From the IMG/VR virus record IMGVR_UViG_3300037484_000235, positions 188,522-252,521 of that record: a stretch of DNA of 64,000 nt. One strand, written 5' to 3'. The notes under the pieces were generated by a model. It was not told where the DNA came from. It saw nothing but the letters and a program-made list of their open reading frames with translations, and did no database searches. Made by a program: the position numbers and the translations under genes. Shown piece after piece: positions 3 to 31,438 of the stretch. This stretch comes from a virus (Duplodnaviria; Caudoviricetes). How positions within the stretch are numbered: position 1 is the stretch's first letter; every line of letters begins with the position of its first letter.

Positions 3-3000
3 ACCGCAGGTGGTTCACTTGCACCTGCCAATGCCTCTAAGGACATTGAGCGTGGGCGCCCCATCTTCGCACGCATCTCCCAGGTGGGTATAGACCTCCC
101 ACTCACGTTGCTCACGCAGTCCGATTTGGGCGTGGTGGCAAATGGCTCTTTGAGCGTTCCCACAGTGGGGGCCCGCTTCACATCGGGCGCATTCAATCTG
201 AGGATCGGAACCCAGGAGTTCACCCAGGGTATCGAGCTTCTCCCAGTGGCCGCCTTCTCCCCGAGCCCCGCGAACATCGAGTACATCAACACGGGCATCA
301 ATGCTGGTGACTTGAAGTTCAGCGCTGCGCTACTTGATGAGTACCAGTCTGCAACTGTTCTCTATGTCGAGACTCTCCTTCCGGCTGCGGACCTACTCTC
401 TGGTCAGGCGGAAATCGATCCAGACTCTGGGTCCCTCTCACTCTCCCAAATCGATCTCACGGCGGGGTCTGGCAGTCCTGTCTACTTTGTGTCCCAACTT
501 TCCACAGAGGGCACCACAGACGTAACTGCAAATCCCATCCTTGGGTCGTTCACGTTCCTAGCCAATCCGATCCAAGCATCCCAGCTTGTGGAGGCGGTCT
601 ACTACAGGGCTGTCCCCAACTCCGGGGATCTGTTCCTAGATGCCGATGGGAACCCCGTCCAGATGCGGGAGTTTCTCCCTCTCTACATTCGGGCGGAAGT
701 GGCAACTCGGATTTCGAGTCAGCTCTATGCGTTCAATCCAACGGGACGCACTGTTGACCAGATCGTGGATCCTGTTGTCTACACGGGATCTAGGCAGCAG
801 ACTTATGGCGCCCCTAGTGGGTGTTCGATCGACTTCAATCGGAATACGATTTCGATCAACTCCGAAGTCTCCGAAGCCACGAACGTCACCATCTCGTACG
901 CGGTGTATGAAGCCTTTGGAGGGGAGACTTCCTATAGCGTGTCGCTGCCACCTGTGTGGCGCCCACCGTTCCGAATCGACAAGAATCAGACCCAGTTCCT
1001 TCTGGATACGAACCGGACAAGTGACCTGCTTGCGGGCAAGGTTCTGCGCGTGGGGTCATTCACCACCTATGTCCGAAGTGCTACCTACGACGTCATCAGT
1101 GACACAACTCTGGTCACAGTCTTCCCGTCTTCGGTCTACGGGGCTGGGTCGCTCAATCCAGGAGTAAATGCACTCTCTCTTCTCACTGATCGAACGGTCG
1201 CAGTTACAGTAGACCCCTTCGGTGTGCCCGTATCTGTGCCTGGGTCGGATCCAGGCTTCCTGCCAACCATGGCGCAGGCATTCACCCTGGCTTCAACCCC
1301 ACACTTTGAGACGGTCACTAAGGGTCAGGTCGAGATCAAGTTCGATGGAGATCTCACCCAGTATGCCGTTGCAGGGCATCTCCTCGAACTGTTCGGGAAG
1401 CCCTTCGCAATCGTGAAGTCCGTCTTCTCTCAGGACGGCCGGGTCACAACGGTATCCGTCAGTTCTCCCTTCCCAGAAGATTTCGTGTGGTCCTCTGGCC
1501 TGTTGGATACAGCAGCCCGAATCTCGGTACGCCCAATCTATCCAGAGGGGGCAACCCAGTTCTTGGGGGCCGGTGGGTTCCTTTCCAGTGAGCCTTACGA
1601 AGTCGTGCTCTTCGGAGAAACTGACGACTCCGGGAACACACTCCCAGGACGAACTCTCGTATCGGGTCAGGACTACAACTTCCTCGAAGGTAACGGGAGT
1701 CTGGCATTCATTCAGCCGCATCAGGCGGGGTTCGCCGCCGGTCAGAAGCTTCTTTTTGCCCGGACTGACGTACAACAGATTGGCCCCAAGATGTCTCTGG
1801 GGCACGTTCAGTACCCACGAGTTTCTTCGAGCTTCCTGTACGTGGACCCGCCTTCCGCTCAGAATGGGCGTGAGGGTGGTGTTTTGCAGGGCACGTACAC
1901 CTTTGAGAGTCCCGACGCGTTCTACGTGCGCGCGGTTCCCCTACTCACGTACGTGGGTGAGGTGTCCCTGGATATCCAGAAGGAAGCCACTGCCCAAGAC
2001 CCTGCTAAGGGCCCGACGTATTCGAGTGGTGCGAGCAAGCTCAACTCTGACTATGGGCGTATGGGGCTGGTATCCGAGAGCCAGAATCTTGTGGACCGGG
2101 ACCGGGCTGCCCGCACGTTCCTCGGCTTCTACAATGCAGTTGTCTCGTCGTTCGAACAGATCGAAGAGACGCTCAATGGGGCCTTTGTTGGTGAGCGTGA
2201 TGGTAAGCTCCGCCTCTACGTAGGCAAGGGAGACCCATGGGTTCCGCCCGGCTACGAGGATGAGATCACAGGTGCTCTGAATCCTCGTGTGCTCTGGTTC
2301 GATGCTTGGATGTCCGCCCGCCAGGGACTTCCAACGATCCGCCTCATCGCAACAGACCCCGTCACGGATCCCCTCAACACCACCACGGACGCAAACGGCC
2401 GTCCTGTCGGATCGTTCCAGGACTCGTCGGGATTCCACGCACTCACAGACTACCAGGACATTCTCATCAAGAACGATGTGGATGACGTGGTGCTTGTCAC
2501 CCGGAATAATGTCCAACGCAAGATCGCTGGATTTATCCACTTCAAGGTCACTGCCACTGGCCTGTTCTCTCAACTGAGCGAGGCCAATCCGTTCTCCCGG
2601 CTGTTCCCTGAGCGCACGTCTGGGTTCACGACCCTCGGACCTGGACTCGACGGTGACGAGACTCTCGGAAACCCGGGTGTCTACTCGGCTGGAAAGTTCG
2701 GACTGGATCCCCTCGGGTTCCTCTTCGGGTCATCCTTCTCGTCTCGATCCACGACGGGAACTGTCATCGGAACCCTGGAGAATCCGGTCCTCGGAACAAT
2801 CCAGAACATCCTGGGTGTCAAGGCCCGGGACCGTCTCGCGCGTGCTCGTATCTGGTCGTACTCTGCAACGGGATTCCCCGAAGTGGATGTGCTCTCGACG
2901 GGCCTCCCGAGCTTCATCGCAACCCCACTACCACTGGTGGACTTCCCCATCCTTTCGGACACGGGTCTTCCGGACACCTCGCAGCTTGCCTCACAGAGCA

Positions 3001-6000
3001 TCACTCCTCTGCCAACAGGGTTCAACGATCTCCTCACCGGAGACCCTGACCTGCACACCCCACCGTTTGCCTCGGGGGCTCAGCTCGCACTCGGATACCC
3101 CAAGGGCAATGCAACCGAGCTTGGATATGCAGACCCCACAACCATCATTCCCGTGGGTGCGTCGTTCCGGTACGCTGGCGTCTTCGTAGACCAAATCCTC
3201 AAGGGGTGTGTCATCACCCTCAAGAGCAAGAACACTGCGGGGGCGGACGTGCCTGTCACGGATCCTACCCTGCTATTGGCGTTGACCGGGGCCATGTCGG
3301 GAGACCCCGTCAACCCAGAACGTGGCGACACTCTGTTTGTGGTCCCAGGAACAGGCAGCGTACTTCCTGTCACCGCCGATCCACCAACGATTGCACAACT
3401 TCAATCGTTCACAGCGGCACTTCCAGGGTACCGCACAGGCACGGACTTCAACTACACGCCACGTACCGGTGAGATCACCGACGCAACACTCCCCTCGTTC
3501 TCAGACCCCACGATCTTCGGTCTGAAGGAAATCACGGGTCAGAGGCCACCATCCCCGCTCTCTACAATCGAAGCCCAAATCTCATTTCAGAATGGGTCTC
3601 GGTTGCCTACTAGGATCCCCGCACTGGATGGTGACAAGACCCTGGACTCAGGGGACTACTCACTTCCATACTACGGGTCGACCTTGAACGAGTTGGAACT
3701 GTTGGGTGAAACTGCCACCCTGATTACAGGGTTCATTCGAGCGGACAGCCCAGACCCGGCCCCCGTCGCCGTCCCTCAGGTTCTTCCCTATACGACAGAG
3801 GCCGTTTTCCCAGATGAGACACTGGGAGACGCAGGTGTAGTCTCCACCAACTCTGCTCTTTTGGCGACTCTCTCCACCTTCGAAGACCTCAGCAGGAAGA
3901 CAACTTCTGGTGCTTACCCACCACCTCCGGGACACGCTGGGGTAGGGGATGTGGAGCCCTACGATCTTGTACTGGTTCAGGCGCCCAACACAGCGACCCC
4001 GGGCCCTGCTGGATTCCCTGCGGGAGCTACTGGCATCCACTCTATCGCTGATATTTCTCTTGGAGCCCCAAATCAGGTTGATCTACCTCGATTCACGACG
4101 GCTGTTTCCGAGGGAACCAGTCTGAATTATGACATTGGAAACGCCATCGCGTGGGTGGACTTCCCAGCTTATGCCTCTGGGGTTGTCGTCAAGGAAGACA
4201 CCAATCTAGTCCCCACCGAAACGACATTTGATATTGTCTCGGTGGGTGCTGCCAACATCGTCCTCGATGATGGGCTGGGTGGCGGACTACTCCCTATCCC
4301 CGTTGGTGGTTTGAACGATGTGTTCACCCTCAACGGAAAGGGGAGCCAACTTATCATCAAGCTAATTAACAAGGCAACGGGGCAATTCGTTCCTGGAAGT
4401 ATCGTGACCGTCGAGAAGGATGCTTCTGGACCAAATATCCTTGCTTGTACCTTCCTTGTCTCTGGGGATGGTACCGCTCCTACTATCCCAGTGGCGGCGG
4501 GTGGTTTCTACTTCCTGCCGGACAAGATTGTCATCAAGACCACAGCCCCCGATGTGTTCTTTGATTTTGTCCCTTTTGATCCTGTCGCTGTACCTCCGCC
4601 AGGGACTCAGTTGACCGATGGGTTCCATGACTTCGCCCTTAGCGTTCATTGTCTGGGTTCCAGTACTGGATCTGTTGGACGTGACCGATTGACTTTCAAC
4701 GATCACATTGATTTTAGGTCGGCTTTGCCCCGTGGATTCACCCACCCTGCGAACATCGCAGGGTCACTCATGGAATGCCAACTATCCACCTTCCGATTTG
4801 AGTCTACTGTCTACAACACAGTTACGGCGCTCATGACGACGCGGGCCAACTTCGCAAATGACATCCTTGCCATCAACGCTGGTGTGGCCTTCACGTTCCC
4901 CGCCCGGTCGTGGATTACACCCTCCGTCAACGGGGTGGGTACATTTGCGTTGGGTCTGGGTTCTCTTCGAGCGCTAGGATTCGAGGGGCAGGGAAACGTG
5001 CCTATCGAGGCTACGGGGATCACGTTCACTGCTATCCCATCCTCTCGTCAGGACGACCTTGGTCCGATCTACAACAGCTTGATGGTTGTTGGAGAGGACT
5101 TGGGAGCTGGGGCCCCGTTCCGATTCACCAACGAAAACGGATTCCTCCCACTCGTCACCTACGAGGGTGATTTGAGCCAAATCCAATCGGGAGATATTGC
5201 GGTCGTCAAGGGCTTCGTGGATCCCACCCTCTTCCCAATGGTTTTGGATGGAAGCGGAAAGGTCGGAACCTACCTCATCCGTGCAGCGGTTGCACCCACA
5301 GTTTCGACGCCTGGCCACCAGCTCGATTTGACCATGACCCTGGGATCCACCGGGGACTGGATGGACTTCACCTTCCCACAGGTGGTCAACTTCGACCCGC
5401 TCGGACCAGACCTCACAGTCACATCGCTTCTCCCGCTGCAACCCCTCCAGGATGTGACGGGCGGTATCATCCCCGCAAGCGCCGCGTTCCCAGCGGCCGG
5501 GCGTGTATACGTGATCTTGGACGCAACCGCTGTGGGGCTTGCGTCCAGTGCGGTCTCTGCGGCATATGCCTCTCTGAATCTCGGGGGCAACACCTTCGTC
5601 AATCTCTCTGGATACCAAGATGGTGTCGGGGCTGCGATCACACTTGCTCAGTTCCAGACAGCAGTTACAGCGGGCTTGTTTGTCTCGGGCATGACGGTTG
5701 TGCCCGTATCCCCATATAATGATGATGTGCCGGTGAACTTGCCCGGGTACACATTCTGGCCAATACCCGTTCCGGGAACCGAGCACTACTTTGGGTTCCG
5801 CACGGTCACCGCGACTCGGACTGGATCCGTTACCTATGATGCAGCTGCCCTCAATCTTGTGGGCGTAGCACCGGCTCCCGGCCAGATCTCAGCCTACTCG
5901 AAGGTAAAAGTGCCCTCCACTTCGTTCATACAGTTGAACGAGCCCGTCTACGACAACATCCCAGGTGCAATGGATCTGACAGAGTTCAACTGGGCAGGCA

Positions 6001-13157: not shown

Positions 13158-14228
13158 TTATCGATTTGGATCGTAGGGTCTTCCGGATGGATCCGTGATG
13201 TAGAGGTCGTCATCCTCGGCATCTGTAATCCGGAATCCAGGATCTAACCCAAGGTCTTTTTCGACCGAAGCCTGCGTCTCAAGCATCTCCAATGCTTTGT
13301 TGATGGCGCGGGCAGCTGGAGGCATGCGGGAACCGCGCAGGGCGTACATGGACACCCTTCGGAGTAAGTTCGCGAAGGCGATGGCCTCATCCTCTGGGAA
13401 GCCAGAGTTCCGGCTTGCTACGACCAGTTCCTTGGCTGACTCAAGGATTTGGGTGGTGTAGAACGTCGTTCGCGAAGCGCGGCGTTGACCGTGAGGTGAA
13501 CTGTGTTCGTCTAGTTCACGCAGGACTTCCCAGGGTCGCTTGGGTGTCACGCGTGGATCGTGTGCGTCAAGTGCCAAGGCCGCCTTGTAGAGAAGGCTGG
13601 CAGCCCCACGATTGCCGCCGGACTTGGCGTAGGCCGCACAGGTCAAGAGTACCTGGTGGAAGGCTTCGTCAATGTCTTCCGTCGAGCTGCGGGCCCCATG
13701 GTGCGCGTCCAGAAGGTCTTGAACGTTGGCCTTGAGCAGAAGCGCCTTCGACGCCTGATTTGCCCGCTTGGCCACGGACGCCTTCTTGTCGTCCTTCTTG
13801 CCCTCTTCGACCTTCTTTTCGCAGTTGTCTCGCATCCCGCCCTCGGGAAGCTTCTCGCAACCGGCGGTCTTGTCAACATCCTTGGCCTTCTTGTCGCAAA
13901 CAGCGCAACGTCCAGAAGACACGTTTCCGAAGGCTCTCGCCTTTGAGACAGCGGACGGCTTGAACTTCTTGCCGCACAGGGCGACGTTGTTCACGACGTT
14001 GGATCCGTCCTCGAATACTGCGTTCTTGAAGGCGTGGGATTCTCCGTCACGTTGGTTGCCAGGACGCGCCCAGGCAACCTCGATTTTCTCCGGCGTCTCC
14101 CCGTGCATGACGGGTTCCCAGAATGGTGCTACCGCAGCTTCCTTGAGAAGGGGGAGCAAGTCAGCCCGGAGAGCCGGGTTCTGGTGGGCAAGGCGAATGA
14201 GGCGTGAGCGGAGGGCTTGGTCTGACAT
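13158..14228 (-). CDS. Leader-bearing modular protein (356 aa), candidate internal virion protein
   Basis: N-terminus MSDQALRSRLIRLAHQNPALRADLLPLLKEAA is shared with three other genes; SD AAGGTGG precedes the ATG; internal KTAG/KKAS/RRAS junctions. Confidence 0.75.
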   Translation of the reverse strand: MSDQALRSRLIRLAHQNPALRADLLPLLKEAAVAPFWEPVMHGETPEKIEVAWARPGNQRDGESHAFKNAVFEDGSNVVNNVALCGKKFKPSAVSKARAFGNVSSGRCAVCDKKAKDVDKTAGCEKLPEGGMRDNCEKKVEEGKKDDKKASVAKRANQASKALLLKANVQDLLDAHHGARSSTEDIDEAFHQVLLTCAAYAKSGGNRGAASLLYKAALALDAHDPRVTPKRPWEVLRELDEHSSPHGQRRASRTTFYTTQILESAKELVVASRNSGFPEDEAIAFANLLRRVSMYALRGSRMPPAARAINKALEMLETQASVEKDLGLDPGFRITDAEDDDLYITDPSGRPYDPNR

Positions 14229-20894: not shown

Positions 20895-21371
20895 ATTCCT
20901 GTTTTCAGATACCAGTGCGACTGCGGATTGAACTTCTCGACTCGTGTCGCTTCGGCAGCGAGTCCGGTGAAGTGCTCCTGCGGGTCATTGGCGAAACAAG
21001 ATCTCCCCCGATCTTTTTCGGTGGGCACGTCTGTTCCTACGAATGGACTCTCTGCCCCATCAACAGGCCTATCGTCACATGACTATGTGTTTGACAAGGT
21101 TGTGGGAGAAGATGCCAAGGGCAAGTGGGACAAGATTGCGGCCCGCCACAAGGACAAGGTTCGGCTTCTTGAGCAGACTGGGGCCACAGGATTCGATCTC
21201 ACCAAGCAGCATGACGGTTCCTACGCCATCATGACCCCCCAGCAGCGGGCTGCCTCTGAACGGACACGGGCATTCCACTTCAAGATGGATGCTGCGGGTC
21301 CGGCTCAAGCCCGAAAGAAGCAGATTGAGGCAACAAGTTTGGTCCCTAAGGATCACAAAAGCCATGTCTGA
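20895..21371 (+). CDS. FmdB-like zinc-ribbon protein (158 aa), probable ATT start
   Basis: In-frame extension upstream of the track start gives (M)PVFRYQCDCGLNF...CSCG, the FmdB-type N-terminus. An in-frame TGA lies at 20880 and no ATG/GTG/TTG occurs before 20928. Confidence 0.75.
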   Translation: MPVFRYQCDCGLNFSTRVASAASPVKCSCGSLAKQDLPRSFSVGTSVPTNGLSAPSTGLSSHDYVFDKVVGEDAKGKWDKIAARHKDKVRLLEQTGATGFDLTKQHDGSYAIMTPQQRAASERTRAFHFKMDAAGPAQARKKQIEATSLVPKDHKSHV

Positions 21372-22053
21372 ACTTCGAAGTAAGCTCATTCGTTTGGCCA
21401 ACTCTAACCCAGAGTTGCGATCCACATTGCTACCTTTGCTGAAGGAGGGCGCCGCCGAGAAGACCGGGTCCTCTGTCACCTATGCGATGGCTGTGAGGGA
21501 CGCTTCTCTGGAGTTGATTGGAGCGTCAAGAGGAAGTGATGTTACAGACGAGGGGCAGATGCTCATTCTGCTTCTTGCTGCATGCTCCACATTCGTCAAG
21601 AAGGGCAGGATTGGAAGCAATCAGACCGCTATCCTCATCAAAAGGGCAGCCGACTCGTTGTACAAGGAGATGTTCGGGGAGAGTCCTGATGCGGTGTCAC
21701 CAGTTGTTGCCGCTCCGACCCCCAGGGATCTGTTCTTTGGTTCGGGCAAGCTAAGTGGGTATGCCCTAGAAGTCATCCGTGGGATGCAGATGTTGGATGG
21801 TGACATCCACACCAAAGGCAAAGTAAATCCCAATGGCTCGGTGGAGTTCATGCATGGTGGTGTCTACGGCACAGTTCTGGTTGAGATGGGATTGTCCAAT
21901 GATGCCCGTGCGTGGGTATCTGTGTACACGACTGGGCGTCGGCCCGCTTCCATCATGTTTCCCTCAACCTTCGATGTGAAGAGCGTGGCTGGGTCAAAGT
22001 TTCCCAGGATGCTCCTGAACAAGCTCTCTGACCTGAGTGCTTGGGCTGAGTAA
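21364..22053 (+). CDS. Leader-bearing modular protein (229 aa), candidate internal virion protein
   Basis: True start is likely ATG 21364: MSELRSKLIRLANSNPELRSTLLPLLKEGAA. Confidence 0.75.
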   Translation: MSELRSKLIRLANSNPELRSTLLPLLKEGAAEKTGSSVTYAMAVRDASLELIGASRGSDVTDEGQMLILLLAACSTFVKKGRIGSNQTAILIKRAADSLYKEMFGESPDAVSPVVAAPTPRDLFFGSGKLSGYALEVIRGMQMLDGDIHTKGKVNPNGSVEFMHGGVYGTVLVEMGLSNDARAWVSVYTTGRRPASIMFPSTFDVKSVAGSKFPRMLLNKLSDLSAWAE

Positions 22054-27506: not shown

Positions 27507-27532
27507 CCTGTGTAGGGACCGGATGAAAGCTG

Positions 27533-27578
27533 AACTAGAGCGGAGTCGGGGACAAAATCCTCAGGCTCCGTTCTAGTT
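27533..27578 (+). other. Long stem-loop downstream of the sheath gene
   Basis: AACTAGAGCGGAG pairs with CTCCGTTCTAGTT (one G-U), plus an inner GGGGA/TCCTC stem; weak U-tract. Confidence 0.55.
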
Positions 27579-27609
27579 TCTAGCCTATCTCACACGTCTG
27601 GAAAGAGCT

Positions 27610-28857
27610 ATGTCCAATCCACTCTCCAAACTCGTCCGGTTGGCACAGTCAAATCCAGAGCTTGCCACCATCTTGAAGCCAGAGCCATTGGCTTCTCGGG
27701 TTGCGGACGCAGCTAGGAAGGCGGGGATGCTGGGCCGCACTTCTCTTGAGGCATTCGTCTTCAAGAGGTTTCCGCCTGACAACAAGATGAAGGGTGGGGG
27801 GCGGCTGATGGTGATGCTTACGGGCAACACCGCAACAGCAGTTGGTGTCCCCAACTACACCACTAGGTACTTGGACCAGCTTGACGACGATCAGCTCAAG
27901 GCCCTCGTGGATGCGGTAGATCCTCACGGACATGGTTATCGCCTGGCGGGCTACGGGCGAGGCTACGGATCGTCCTACAAGGGTGACCCCAGGTGGATGG
28001 AAGCCAAGTACCCTGGCGTGGACTCCAAAGGCAACTCTTTCCGTAAGGGAGAGGAAGTCCTCTACTGGCCTTCGACAAAGACCTTCATGACGGGCCCTGA
28101 AGCCAAGGCGGCTTGGCAGAAGTTCCTGTCCGAGAAGGGCGACGAAGAGGGCAATCCATACGCTCGTGCGGCTTCTGCTAAGCGGGTTGTTGCCACTTTT
28201 CTTCCCACATGTTCGGATGGCACCCCCGCAGAGTATGATGATGGGTTAGACGCTTATGCGTGTCCATCGACTGGGGAGGTTGGACCAAACGGACCTGCCT
28301 ACCAAAAGTGTGCGGCTCACGGTGCGGTTTCTGTCAGGCGGGTAGCGGGGGAAATTGACCACTCAATCGCTCGCCGACAGGCAGCATTGGTGTTGAAGGG
28401 GCTCAGGCCCTCTACTCGTGCAGGAGTTCTCAAGGAACTTCTTGCAAGGATCACGGGGGATGCTGTCCTCATGGATTATCTCTACCGGGAGACCGTCTCT
28501 GGTTCCTACGCAGGTAAAGACGGCAAGCTGAATTACCACATGATGGGGGACCTGTTTGGGGGGCCCGTCGCACAGTGGAAAGAGCGCAATGAGATTGAGG
28601 ACAATCCCGCCTATGAAGAGTTGTCTCTTGACCCCAAGCTTGCAGCAGGAATTGAGAAGGCACTCAAAACCTACCGCCCACAGAACCCAACTATCTCCAA
28701 GGTTGACTCCATCGACTTTGATAGTGTGAGGATGAAAATCCGCTTCGATCTGACAGACAAGATCAAGCGCCTTCAGGCCGGAAACAGCACGGACCCCGCT
28801 GGAGACGCAGCGGAAATCGCCCGCATCTTCGAAGAACTAGCAAGGATGTTCAAGTGA
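27610..28857 (+). CDS. Leader-bearing modular protein (415 aa), candidate internal virion protein
   Basis: N-terminus MSNPLSKLVRLAQSNPELATILK; modules bounded by RKAG, RLAG, RAAS and RVAG. Confidence 0.75.
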   Translation: MSNPLSKLVRLAQSNPELATILKPEPLASRVADAARKAGMLGRTSLEAFVFKRFPPDNKMKGGGRLMVMLTGNTATAVGVPNYTTRYLDQLDDDQLKALVDAVDPHGHGYRLAGYGRGYGSSYKGDPRWMEAKYPGVDSKGNSFRKGEEVLYWPSTKTFMTGPEAKAAWQKFLSEKGDEEGNPYARAASAKRVVATFLPTCSDGTPAEYDDGLDAYACPSTGEVGPNGPAYQKCAAHGAVSVRRVAGEIDHSIARRQAALVLKGLRPSTRAGVLKELLARITGDAVLMDYLYRETVSGSYAGKDGKLNYHMMGDLFGGPVAQWKERNEIEDNPAYEELSLDPKLAAGIEKALKTYRPQNPTISKVDSIDFDSVRMKIRFDLTDKIKRLQAGNSTDPAGDAAEIARIFEELARMFK

Positions 28858-29162
28858 CTACTCTCCGCAACAAAGTCATCCGCCTCGCTCATGCCAAGCC
28901 TGAGCTTCGGGCTCAGTTGCTTCCTTTGCTCAAGGAAGCTGCCTATACCTATGAGAGCTACTCGAAGGGGCTCAATCTTCGTGGTGAGATCCGCAAGCTA
29001 GAGGCACTCGCTAGCACCCCCTTGGAAGCTTACCTCCCCAGCGAAGACTCACTCATGGACAAGCCCGGCGGGTACGACAAGGAGTTTCGTAAGCTGAAGA
29101 CCCAGTTGGAAAAGATCATCGCTCTTCGAGAGCAGTATGCGAAGGACGCCGGAAACCTCTGA
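28854..29162 (+). CDS. Leader-bearing small protein (102 aa)
   Basis: GTGA overlap; MTTLRNKVIRLAHAKPELRAQLLPLLKEAA followed by about 70 aa of helix. Confidence 0.8.
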   Translation: MTTLRNKVIRLAHAKPELRAQLLPLLKEAAYTYESYSKGLNLRGEIRKLEALASTPLEAYLPSEDSLMDKPGGYDKEFRKLKTQLEKIIALREQYAKDAGNL

Positions 29163-29168
29163 TCAATC

Positions 29169-30455
29169 CTATGGCGTCAGACCCAATGTGTTGAGTCTAT
29201 CTTGGAGGAAGTTCAGATCTTCCCATGGATCGTTGTAGTGGACTACCAGGTACAAATACACCCCTACGGTGAGACGCTCTTTGAGCTTGTCTCTTTCCTG
29301 TAGGGCCCTGAACTGGTTCAGGTTCTTGATGTGGGTGGACGGAAATACCGTATGTTGCCAACCTTGGAACTCAGCTAGGAGGTTGTGATCTGGGAAGTAC
29401 CCATCATATCTTAGGCGCCCACCTGTCTTTGGATTGAGGAACCCAGGTGGGTTCCACTCCTGTTCGTAGGCGAGTCCACCGAGTGCCCGAGATACGGCGT
29501 CCAAGAATAGTTCCTGGGAGATGGCCCGATGCGCTATAGGCAGACCTAGTTGGATACAGATCTTTTGAAGTGTTGTGTGGCAGTGCCCGAGACCAGTTAC
29601 GGCCTTGCAGATTGCTACCTTCCCATTCTTCAATCTGTAGGGATCGAAATCTTCTGGTCGAAGAGTGAATTTCTTGTAGTCCGATCGGGTGAGGGAATAT
29701 TTCCGTGTGCATCGGAGCCCCAGCTCTTGGATGTTTCTCTTCATGGGCATGATCCCAACCCCTAGCCCCTTTACGGCAGAGTGGTGATCTACCGTCCCAT
29801 CAGACTCGATGTAGGGGGTCAAATCCTTGAGCGTAAGCCTGATGATTTGAGATTCAGCATACACCTGGAATTTCTTCTTCCAGATCTCGGTTTTAGGCTT
29901 ACCCTTGGATTGTGCTGAGAGTTTGCTTCGGAAGGATTTTGCTGTGATTGAAGCCCCTGGATACTTGTCCCGATACTTCTTGGAGAGTTCTGGGTGTGAT
30001 CTCTGGATGTGGGATGCTAGCGACTCGGACTTGTGTCCGCACTCCAGGCACGTTACATAATCATGGAGTTCTGATTTCCCATCCCACTTTTCTTTCAGAG
30101 CTTTCTGAATCTCCTCACCTTTACACTTGAGGCATTTTGTAAATGGGGATGTGCGATACGGTACCTCATTTGATTCCCCACAGTTGGGACAATTAGCCAA
30201 CCTCTTTCCTACCTTTCGGTGACTCTTCCCTCGTCTCGATGCGCCCCTTTTTTCCTTGGATACTGAACCGAAGACAAGCGCTCCAGCCCCATACAACTCT
30301 CGATACCTGACAGCTGGGGTGTTGTGTTCCTTAACAAGGTGTCGCGTAAGGGAGACGGCTTTTTTCCCACAGATCCTGCACCTCACGTAATCAACACCCT
30401 CAACCAATCCATTGAATTGGTCTGAACGGTCGATCTCGGACTCTTTTTTGCCCAT
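29169..30455 (-). mobile_element. Free-standing homing endonuclease gene, PD-(D/E)xK/Vsr-like nuclease with repeated zinc fingers (428 aa)
   Basis: Two CxxC..H..H fingers (YVRCRICG...HLVKEH; YVTCLECG...HIQRSH), a CPNC...CLKC ribbon, and a C-terminal RLRYDGYFPDHNLLAEFQGWQH nuclease motif. It is antisense, Lys-rich and visibly lower in GC. Confidence 0.75.
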
Positions 30456-30465
30456 ATCGAAGGCA

Positions 30466-30489
30466 CACTATAACACCACAAGTGGTGTT
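30466..30489 (-). promoter_or_regulatory. Extended -10 promoter (TGTTATAGT) of the endonuclease gene, overlapped by a palindrome
   Basis: The - strand reads TGTTATAGT, 11 nt before the ATG; perfect 8-bp inverted repeat AACACCAC-aa-GTGGTGTT at 30472-30489. Confidence 0.55.
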
Positions 30490-30625
30490 TACCTCAATCA
30501 TTCTCGTTCACCTACTTATCATGCAACCAAGATAGGTGAGGGATCCTGAAACGAGTGGTCCAGCTATCCGTTTCCGTTCCTATAGCCCAACATAAATAGG
30601 AACGACATCGTCCCACGGAGAGTAC

Positions 30626-31438
30626 ATGGCTAATCAAGATTTGCATCCCGCTAACGGTACCGCTGGTTCCAGCTACTTGTATGATTTTGGAACCTCTCCG
30701 AACACGCGGGTAGCTGTCTCCCAGAAGGTGCGTCTCCTTGCCCCAGCCTATGGCTCGGGAACAAAGGCACTCTTTCAGATGGGTGTTGTCTCTTCGTTCA
30801 GTCCCAGCCAGAGCCGCAACATCGATACGGTGCGTGGCATTGGCTTTGGAGACATGATCGCAGAGCTGGTGCCCTCCGTGACGGAACCCGTCACAGGCAG
30901 CATCGAGCGAGCGCTCCTGTATCTTGCAAATCTCTGGCAGGCGACTGGCTACGCAGGCGGCGTAGATGGTCCCGTGCGTTCGTTGGCCCATCATCGTTGG
31001 CCCTTCGACATTGAGCACCAGCTTGTGTTCTCATCCCTTGCGGACTCGGACCTTGGTTTTGCGAACGTCGGGCACTCCGGTGCGGAGAGGAATTTCGGCG
31101 GCGGCGTCCAGAAGGTTTCCTACCCTCAGGTCAGCATCCCCAACCCGGCGCCTCCCACCTATGGTGGTTCGCAGGGCCACTCGGCCGTCATCACGATGTA
31201 TGAGGCGGCTTGGTTCACGAGCTGGTCGGCGACCTACACGCAGGATGCGGGTCAGATCATGGAGTCCGGAGACGTAACTGTCTCGGATGTACATGATTTC
31301 TCTAGCCTTTACGGCGAATTCCTTCCGAGCGGGAACGATCCTTCCGTCGACCAACTAGGGTCGATTCGTTTCGGCGGGGCTGCCGAAATTGGTACGGCTA
31401 CTGGCGCAGGCGCAGTGGGTGGTACTGGAATTCGCTGA
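30626..31438 (+). CDS. Major tail tube protein (270 aa)
   Basis: Follows the sheath; tube-type pattern GVVSSFSPSQSRNIDTVRGIGFGD...ELVP, WPFDI, YEAAWFTSWSATY..D...IMESGDV. Confidence 0.85.
   Translation: MANQDLHPANGTAGSSYLYDFGTSPNTRVAVSQKVRLLAPAYGSGTKALFQMGVVSSFSPSQSRNIDTVRGIGFGDMIAELVPSVTEPVTGSIERALLYLANLWQATGYAGGVDGPVRSLAHHRWPFDIEHQLVFSSLADSDLGFANVGHSGAERNFGGGVQKVSYPQVSIPNPAPPTYGGSQGHSAVITMYEAAWFTSWSATYTQDAGQIMESGDVTVSDVHDFSSLYGEFLPSGNDPSVDQLGSIRFGGAAEIGTATGAGAVGGTGIR

Follow-up and report, generated by a model that had tools for sequence, protein, structure and literature searches.

In the 64-kb window analyzed here (64,000 nucleotides corresponding to the last part, positions 188522-252521, of the single 252,521-bp IMG/VR virus record IMGVR_UViG_3300037484_000235, CheckV completeness 57%), an open reading frame (ORF) encoding a 415-amino acid (aa) protein is located at positions 27610-28857, while a second ORF at 13158-14228 on the opposite strand encodes a protein of 356 aa. 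The source is a huge phage, uncultured and a relative of Bacillus phage G. Both proteins are chains of independently occurring small modules, with a leader in first place and joined at the motif [KR]-x-A-[ASG], the positions of which are named P3 (Lys or Arg), P2 (any residue), P1 (Ala) and P1' (small residue). A previous sequence-only reading had described them as looking like polyproteins divided at RKAG, RLAG, RAAS and RVAG (415-aa protein) and at KEAA, KTAG, KKAS and RRAS (356-aa protein), and all eight sites are indeed present. For the 415-aa protein, the following features can be deduced:

27610..28857, + strand: 415-aa modular protein with the order leader-A-B-C-D (ORF; separate phmmer blocks)
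27610..27726, + strand: degenerate N-terminal leader, aa 1-39, ending in RKAG (hidden Markov model (HMM) of the leader, or tag; E = 0.01, 14 bits, exact N-terminus)
27715..27726, + strand: RKAG, leader end, aa 36-39 (motif match)
27727..27939, + strand: module A, aa 40-110 (ten matches covering no more than about aa 30-104, the matched proteins having 263-1086 aa)
27940..27951, + strand: RLAG, A/B joint, aa 111-114 (low-confidence flank of the model, see below; motif kept in homologues)
27952..28164, + strand: module B, aa 115-185, a domain of about 60 aa with beta-sheet and helix (phmmer; structure prediction)
28165..28176, + strand: RAAS, B/C joint, aa 186-189 (low-confidence flank of the model; motif kept in homologues)
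28177..28338, + strand: module C, aa 190-243, a Cys-containing mini-domain (matched over C only by homologues P0080 and P0114 and over B plus C by P0002)
28306..28317, + strand: KCAA, extra site at the end of module C, aa 233 (motif match)
28339..28350, + strand: RVAG, C/D joint, aa 244-247 (within the disordered start of the module D model)
28351..28854, + strand: module D, aa 248-415, all-helical domain (structure prediction; standalone homologues)

The resulting blocks comprise about 38, 75, 75, 58 and 169 aa. Consequently, the size range of about 40-130 aa originally given for them does not hold for the last block, while all four boundaries coincide with homology edges, as outlined below. 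Besides KCAA, the pattern is matched at aa 256 (RQAA) and 343 (KLAA).

When a set of 1.84 billion representative proteins was scanned in full by phmmer with the 415-aa query, 202 matches were obtained. Among the best 150, to which the following architecture counts refer, 120 cover module B only (about aa 115-186), 14 module D only (about aa 247-415), eight module A only (about aa 37-101) and two module C only (about aa 194-231), supplemented by few combinations, namely B plus C (three), leader plus A (two) and A plus B (one). The complete leader-A-B-C-D architecture is absent among these 150 proteins. The blocks therefore match separately, and the modules occur independently elsewhere. Module B, which is the block that the sequence-only reading had likened to small standalone phage proteins, is found in many proteins of just 65-97 aa but also, irrespective of position, as part of larger ones with up to 1438 aa, and 14 standalone homologues of module D have sizes of 173-197 aa. 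Moreover, leader and module A recur as a pair inside P0135, with K-M-A-A at the same place, and in P0001 a canonical tag ending in KEAA replaces the RVAG joint directly ahead of module D.

Along the 415-aa query, coverage by these matches shows steps at about aa 37-43, 110-125, 180-195 and 232-250, corresponding to the positions of the four sites. These boundary zones represent 14% of the protein and hold five of the seven motif matches (P about 9e-4), and the probability of all four zones being struck by seven random sites is about 7.6e-4. Counting the matches that span each site was discarded as a boundary test, as alignments often include the conserved motif, and the coverage zones were used instead.

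Structure prediction with AlphaFold2 (AF2) was limited to modules B and D, since whole-protein alignment by MAFFT pulled fragment matches of A and D onto B. Based on family alignments, module D is modeled with a predicted local distance difference test score (pLDDT) of 87.5 and a predicted template modeling score (pTM) of 0.74, the first seven residues including RVA being disordered. In the case of module B, the core (aa 124-180) reaches a pLDDT of about 90, with RLAG and RAAS lying in flanks below 50. RQAA and KLAA are placed inside confident helices of module D, and the bare four-letter pattern is thus insufficient alone. Foldseek did not find any match with E <0.2 in the PDB for either module, only a weak likeness of module B to zinc-ribbon or zinc-finger folds (probability of at most 0.44), by which the Cys-less version noted in the sequence-only reading is left conceivable, and the ESM Atlas returned unnamed small proteins for module B and nothing for module D. 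No family could be assigned by Pfam, PHROGs and NCBIfam to the 415-aa and 356-aa proteins, 106 module B sequences and nine large B-containing proteins. Likewise, an exact-peptide-word search of viral contigs did not reveal a related locus. In tblastn searches against 50,697 GenBank phages, the 415-aa protein gave no match, and for the 356-aa protein the tag in the uncultured 485-kb phage LR745208.1 was the sole one. Modules B and D as well as the two-Cys CEKLP unit of the 356-aa protein are newly defined mini-domains. The features of the latter protein are:

13158..14228, - strand: 356-aa modular protein consisting of tag, module X1, CEKLP mini-module and two helical domains (ORF; blockwise homology)
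14133..14228, - strand: canonical tag, aa 1-32, ending in KEAA at aa 29-32 (tag HMM; alignment of 36 tags)
13776..13871, - strand: KTAG (aa 120-123), 24-aa two-Cys CEKLP mini-module and KKAS (aa 148-151) (recurrence in 56 proteins)
13788..13859, - strand: CEKLP mini-module (homologues)
13473..13484, - strand: RRAS, aa 249-252, joint ahead of the second helical domain (comparison with P0174)

Module X1 has a length of 87 aa and contains Cys pairs; an additional pattern match, RGAA, is located at aa 207. The CEKLP mini-module is present in 64 copies in 56 proteins, often in tandem, and is directly preceded by [KR]-x-A-G in 50 of the 64 copies, with the motif again following 22-36 residues later in 45 of the 60 copies having enough downstream sequence. 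Similarly, P0174 contains two tandem copies of a related helical domain, each placed after K-T-A-G or K-V-A-G, which match KKAS and RRAS of the 356-aa protein. Neither a family nor a published description of the CEKLP mini-module was found. It is near-invariant and usually positioned right after the tag, and it also occurs in the ORF at 72043 of the genome and in P0152-P0204. The public gene call of the 356-aa ORF (P0151, 316 aa) begins at Met41 and thereby loses the tag, the conservation of which speaks for the upstream ATG at 14228 as start.

Junction motif at module edges

Expected motif numbers were established by shuffling each protein 1000-2000 times. Compared with these, the motif is clearly enriched in the 415-aa protein (7 versus 1.8 expected, P about 0.001-0.002) and to a lesser extent in the 356-aa protein (5 versus 1.9, P about 0.04), while seven large tail or other structural proteins of at least 800 aa are at expectation (24 versus 25). 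The sequence-only reading had suggested this very comparison and had named a frequency equal to the Ala-rich background as counterevidence; the counts show an excess over that background instead. In an unbiased ranking of all 330 ORFs of the genome, the 415-aa protein is sixth, the higher ranks being taken by the scaffold, the head protease and three proteins of 719 aa (encoded close to the terminase gene), 1260 aa and 181 aa. In 67 matched proteins with a length of 300 aa or more, 290 motif copies were counted, which is twofold over the expected number of 143.

The edges of module B were evaluated in representatives clustered at 50% identity and having unrelated flanks. Here, the motif is present within 25 aa upstream of the module in 44 of 97 representatives (about 13% expected), peaking 4-9 residues before a conserved Asp-Pro-Arg-Trp. 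On the downstream side, 33 of 75 have a copy within 20 aa (about 11% expected). Relative to the background of the same proteins, this amounts to a 5.7-fold and 6.2-fold enrichment, respectively, whereas most control patterns in which P3, P1 or P1' was altered (for example, acidic P3 or non-small P1') or the order scrambled gave 0 to 2.3-fold. In the homologues, RVAG, REAG, KTAG or KDAG are found immediately before module B, though the upstream sequence is unrelated, and RSAS, RSAA, RAAS or RYAS after it, at the same place as RAAS in the 415-aa protein. Standalone module B proteins lack the motif, which is consequently a feature of the joint rather than of the domain itself. Furthermore, codons differ from one motif site to another; hence, selection acts on the peptide and the motif is not a DNA recombination signal. 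Module swaps between relatives occur at the motif, for example, at RVAG, REAG or RLAG before and at RSAS or RAAS after module B.

Other sequence elements recur around the modules as well. A second short leader or linker, (P-E)-R-V-A-x-R-F/W/Y, is found at N-termini and just past junction sites, with copies at 28177-28200 in the window, at 5803-5870 and 7197-7260 of contig L006 and in P0003, P0004, P0033, P0114 and P0136; the 415-aa protein has a degenerate version (AKRVVATF). Another group of module B proteins (P0041-P0121) shows a conserved and repeated inter-module linker of approximately F-E-E-G-K-P-A-D-P-T-K/E-N-M-S-x-E-D. Contig L019, which derives from a different phage clade, has three adjacent genes (102-3175) with an Arg-rich leader (M-K-R-T-S-R-K...R-R-N) that likewise ends in R-x-A-S, and one of these genes encodes module B. 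Module B is flanked there by R-N-G and N-P-R-R-K stretches, which may represent a different targeting or junction code.

Shared leader and head assembly proteins

The leader consists of about 30 residues with two predicted helices and is found on otherwise unrelated proteins. In the 252-kb fragment, the tag HMM gives nine strong matches at N-termini and an internal one located behind KKAG, in addition to the degenerate copy on the 415-aa protein, and LR745208.1 has 11 copies. When aligning 36 tags, similarity stops at K-x-A-[GAS], and 30 of the 36 end in [KR]-x-A-[GAS], many of them with ...LLKEAG. In LR745208.1, most tagged proteins consist of the tag and one domain and possess few internal sites. 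In the phage studied here, one tagged small gene is located directly behind the portal gene, and four tagged genes are found in the neck and tail region. A promoter motif common to the upstream regions of tagged genes was not found, and a literature search for the tag or module strings did not return any hit. Two further tagged genes are located in the window:

28854..29162, + strand: 102-aa protein with canonical tag ending in KEAA, start overlapping the stop codon of the 415-aa gene
21364..22053, + strand: 229-aa protein with canonical tag (tag HMM)

The 102-aa protein has the best tag score of the genome, and a tagged small gene is also found at this place in the contigs L006, L005 and L021.

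Upstream of the window, a head module encodes large terminase, portal protein, a 505-aa head maturation protease, an acidic 432-aa scaffold-like protein and a 292-aa capsid protein of the HK97 type. The head protease, which the sequence-only reading had recommended to look for, is encoded at 158327-159844 of the genome, with its protease domain at about aa 1-265, and was assigned by a match to phrog_18299 and by annotated relatives. The models PF03420/Peptidase_S77, representing the gp21 type, and S78 did not match in the 252-kb fragment, the CheckV completeness of which is 57%. The capsid protein shows 93% identity to that of LR745208.1, 48% to that of Tunturiibacter phage Tunturi_5 and 39% to that of Bacillus phage G, with cluster C mycobacteriophages as more distant relatives.

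Within this head module, the motif is concentrated in scaffold and protease. The scaffold contains 11 copies versus 2.3 expected, one of them 24 residues from the C-terminus, and the head protease seven versus 2.0, with copies close to both termini as well as behind the protease domain. In LR745208.1, the values are 11 versus 3.1 for the scaffold and 4 versus 1.2 for the protease, at the same positions, although the acidic stretches between the sites diverge, and K-x-A-S is also kept 23-24 aa from the scaffold C-terminus. In the cultured phage Tunturi_5, the scaffold-like gp332 has nine copies versus 2.3 expected and the protease gp331 has sites near both ends, and for the protease gp19 of phage G the ratio is 4 versus 0.67. 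Such a pattern in scaffold and protease is what the recognition site of a head protease would look like. In addition, the 'DNA ejection protein' gp328 of Tunturi_5 (827 aa; L023 1779-4262) bears 14 copies versus 3.2 expected, mostly in Pro/Ala/Glu-rich linkers, making this protein of an Acidobacteria jumbo phage a candidate polyprotein.

For the capsid protein (genome 162035-162913; L001 19036-19911), the best 120 of 2073 matches are 88-100% identical. Its N-terminal K-L-A-A-S is near-invariant, possibly for structural reasons, while the neighboring KTAS is variable.

Concerning the surroundings of the 415-aa gene, the window mainly encodes neck and tail proteins, with a 1787-aa sheath-like protein immediately ahead of it. 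As a comparison with L006 and L021 shows, the stretch from the sheath gene to the conserved tail genes that follow (27507-31438 in the window) is a variable accessory slot. Here, it contains the gene for the modular protein with the order leader-A-B-C-D, the tagged gene of the 102-aa protein, a gene for a 428-aa Ros/MucR-domain protein (inverted compared with L006) and a GIY-YIG homing endonuclease gene. In L006, the slot is occupied by the gene of a 322-aa protein, which is composed of leader, Zn-ribbon, B, C and another domain, and by a tagged 125-aa gene behind it, and in L021 a tagged 107-aa gene precedes a 170-aa protein (leader, B and another domain). In the short contig L005, where the slot position is not checkable, a tag-D gene is followed by an overlapping tagged gene (774-1397). 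The latter, the start of which overlaps the tag-D stop codon, encodes a tagged 207-aa protein composed almost entirely of short G-x-A-K-I/V-x-G repeats, resembling a beta-helix or bactofilin.

Proposed processing of modular precursors and alternative explanations

Taken together, the favored explanation, to which we assign a probability of roughly 0.5, is that modular and probably packaged precursors are processed by the head protease, which would cut after the motif Ala. We infer from the sequence comparisons packaging and cleavage, the identity of the responsible enzyme and any effector role that the pieces may have. The leader would bring the precursor into the assembling procapsid, where the head protease would cut after the Ala at P1. 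Thereby, the leader would be removed and the modules separated, which might then exit together with the DNA.

Several observations weigh against this explanation. With E = 0.01, the leader copy on the 415-aa protein is weak, and in distant homologues of modules A and C the motif is mostly missing at the edges. When setting aside the tag-end site, there is no excess of internal sites in the five tagged proteins encoded by this genome outside the window nor in those of LR745208.1. The latter being mostly single-domain proteins, multi-site 'polyproteins' are the exception and not the rule. KTAS was considered as a site in the capsid protein, but many close relatives have KTPQ and similar sequences instead, and due to this lack of conservation the capsid protein was dropped as evidence. 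In phage G, the putative scaffold and the capsid protein do not contain any motif copy, and the tag was not found in the cultured relatives phage G and Tunturi_5. A search of the literature on the phage and its relatives did not yield proteomic data, and cleavage data are not given in the articles on phage G and Tunturi phages. A PDB sequence search with the head protease did not give any relative, and a solved or characterized family member that could indicate its specificity was not found. Finally, the motif pattern was chosen after looking at these proteins, and two control patterns were also elevated at the edges of module B: [KR]-x-[GS]-[ASG] 5.3-fold upstream, which we ascribe to the domain start being rich in Gly and Arg, as well as [KR]-A-x-[ASG] 3.6-fold downstream. 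Accordingly, the polyprotein proposal of the sequence-only reading is sustained with respect to independent modules, specific joints and a motif common to scaffold and protease, but loses ground with respect to the scarcity of multi-site chains, the unconserved KTAS and the degenerate leader.

In view of the loose four-residue pattern selected post hoc and composition alone predicting about two matches per protein, chance occurrence in proteins rich in Ala, Lys and Arg was tested. It was rejected as highly improbable, as the motif exceeds shuffles by a factor of 2.6 to 3.9, the sites fall on homology edges that had been obtained independently (P about 1e-3) and are kept in homologues with unrelated flanks, and the tail proteins are without excess. 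The main rival, considered less likely than processing, is the possibility of ordinary multidomain proteins that are never cleaved. In this case, the motif would be a conserved signature of linkers, helix caps or docking, carried along when modules and leaders are shuffled, and would not have any proteolytic role. Tags ending in ...LLKEAG would fit a helix end with Gly cap, the two motif copies inside the helices of module D demonstrate that the pattern occurs without a joint, and the prevalence of single-domain tagged proteins in LR745208.1 would agree with this as well. Nevertheless, the motif is seen where module B is fused and is missing when it stands alone, and the RLAG and RAAS joints are predicted to be disordered and not to be helix ends. 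Moreover, constraint at P3, P1 and P1' with P2 and flanks being free suits recognition by a protease better than a structural cap, and the strongest enrichment concerns scaffold and protease, i.e., classical head-protease substrates, including a C-terminal tail site like the maturational site of herpesviruses.

Alternatively, the sites might be cut outside the capsid or by another protease, either of host or phage, in the cytoplasm, and the small proteins would act in infection without being injected. The position of four tagged genes in the neck and tail region and not in the head module, the location of the 415-aa gene in a variable accessory slot beside homing endonuclease and Ros/MucR-domain genes and the hypothetical nature of any association between tag and capsid are in line with this scenario. 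It appears unlikely, though, as the motif is found at conserved positions in the scaffold and at both protease ends in four related phages (in phage G, only in the protease), and one tagged small gene lies directly behind the portal gene. The concentration of the motif in scaffold and protease of related phages is explained most simply if this very protease recognizes it, and processing by the head protease is therefore retained as the preferred explanation.

Relation to known processing systems and implications

A comparable leader is the capsid targeting sequence of phage T4 on the internal proteins IPI-III and Alt, which is removed by the prohead protease gp21, as summarized in PMC10052503 (citing Mullaney and Black, 1996) and the review PMC9026906. 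As in T4, a short N-terminal leader is common to unrelated proteins and ends at a motif that also marks head-assembly proteins, and the proposed logic of loading a protein into the procapsid and then trimming it is the same. In contrast to T4, the leader has about 30 residues with two predicted helices instead of about ten residues, and the motif is [KR]-x-Ala instead of (L/I)-x-Glu. In addition, the head protease belongs to phrog_18299, with no gp21-type match in the fragment. Furthermore, leader removal is the only step in T4, whereas in the presumably packaged proteins described here, further sites are found between folded modules.

In the giant phages phiKZ and SPN3US, the proteases gp175 and gp245, respectively, cut head and ejection proteins at A/S/G-x-Glu (PMC10052503, PMC5694885). 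For SPN3US gp245, the motif is A-X-E and all identified cuts except self-cleavage yield N-terminal propeptides, long ones being removed via multiple cuts (PMC5694885). The system proposed here would likewise employ a giant-phage head protease with a simple three-residue motif and often several sites per protein, but with [KR]-x-Ala replacing S/A/G-x-Glu and with inter-site stretches that are folded modules existing as separate genes elsewhere. A further parallel is given by polyvalent proteins of phages and conjugative elements, in which unrelated modules are combined in one polypeptide predicted to be packaged, injected and possibly cut into active parts (Iyer et al., 2017, PMC5512222). These have recognizable enzymatic domains and often an embedded metallopeptidase for the proposed self-cleavage (PMC5512222). 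The combination of many unrelated modules in one polypeptide is shared, but the modules described here are very small and without Pfam, PHROG or NCBIfam match, and cutting is proposed in trans at a fixed junction motif. Family searches did not detect an embedded peptidase domain in the 415-aa or 356-aa protein.

In herpesviruses, the precursor of protease and scaffold contains release and maturational sites for assemblin, which read V/L-x-Ala followed by Ser. The phage motif agrees with them in having Ala at P1 and a small P1' residue. The placement is also alike, with sites behind the protease domain and some 20-25 residues ahead of the scaffold C-terminus, a layout seen in the phage studied here, LR745208.1 and Tunturi_5, and for the protease only in phage G. 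Yet P3 is basic here, and the likeness concerns the site pattern. To our knowledge, herpesviruses do not process cargo polyproteins in such a way. What is new compared with known head processing is the motif, the leader and the small folded modules between the sites.

As a tentative but conceivable generalization, a large clade of huge soil and freshwater phages may have a true polyprotein strategy, with a K/R-x-Ala head protease stripping the portable leader and cutting packaged precursors into mini-proteins, and with the junction motif as universal connector for module swaps between cargo genes. If the joints are cut, sets of tiny proteins would arise from single precursors, resembling the polyproteins of RNA viruses, whereas in the known phage examples only leaders and propeptides are trimmed. 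The motif would then give the specificity of an uncharacterized head protease family common to phage G, cluster C mycobacteriophages and Tunturi_5, and foreign proteins could be loaded into capsids by means of the portable leader and its junction. Moreover, for thousands of huge phages that are uncultured, mature products as well as the packaged proteome would become predictable from the motif by a simple rule.

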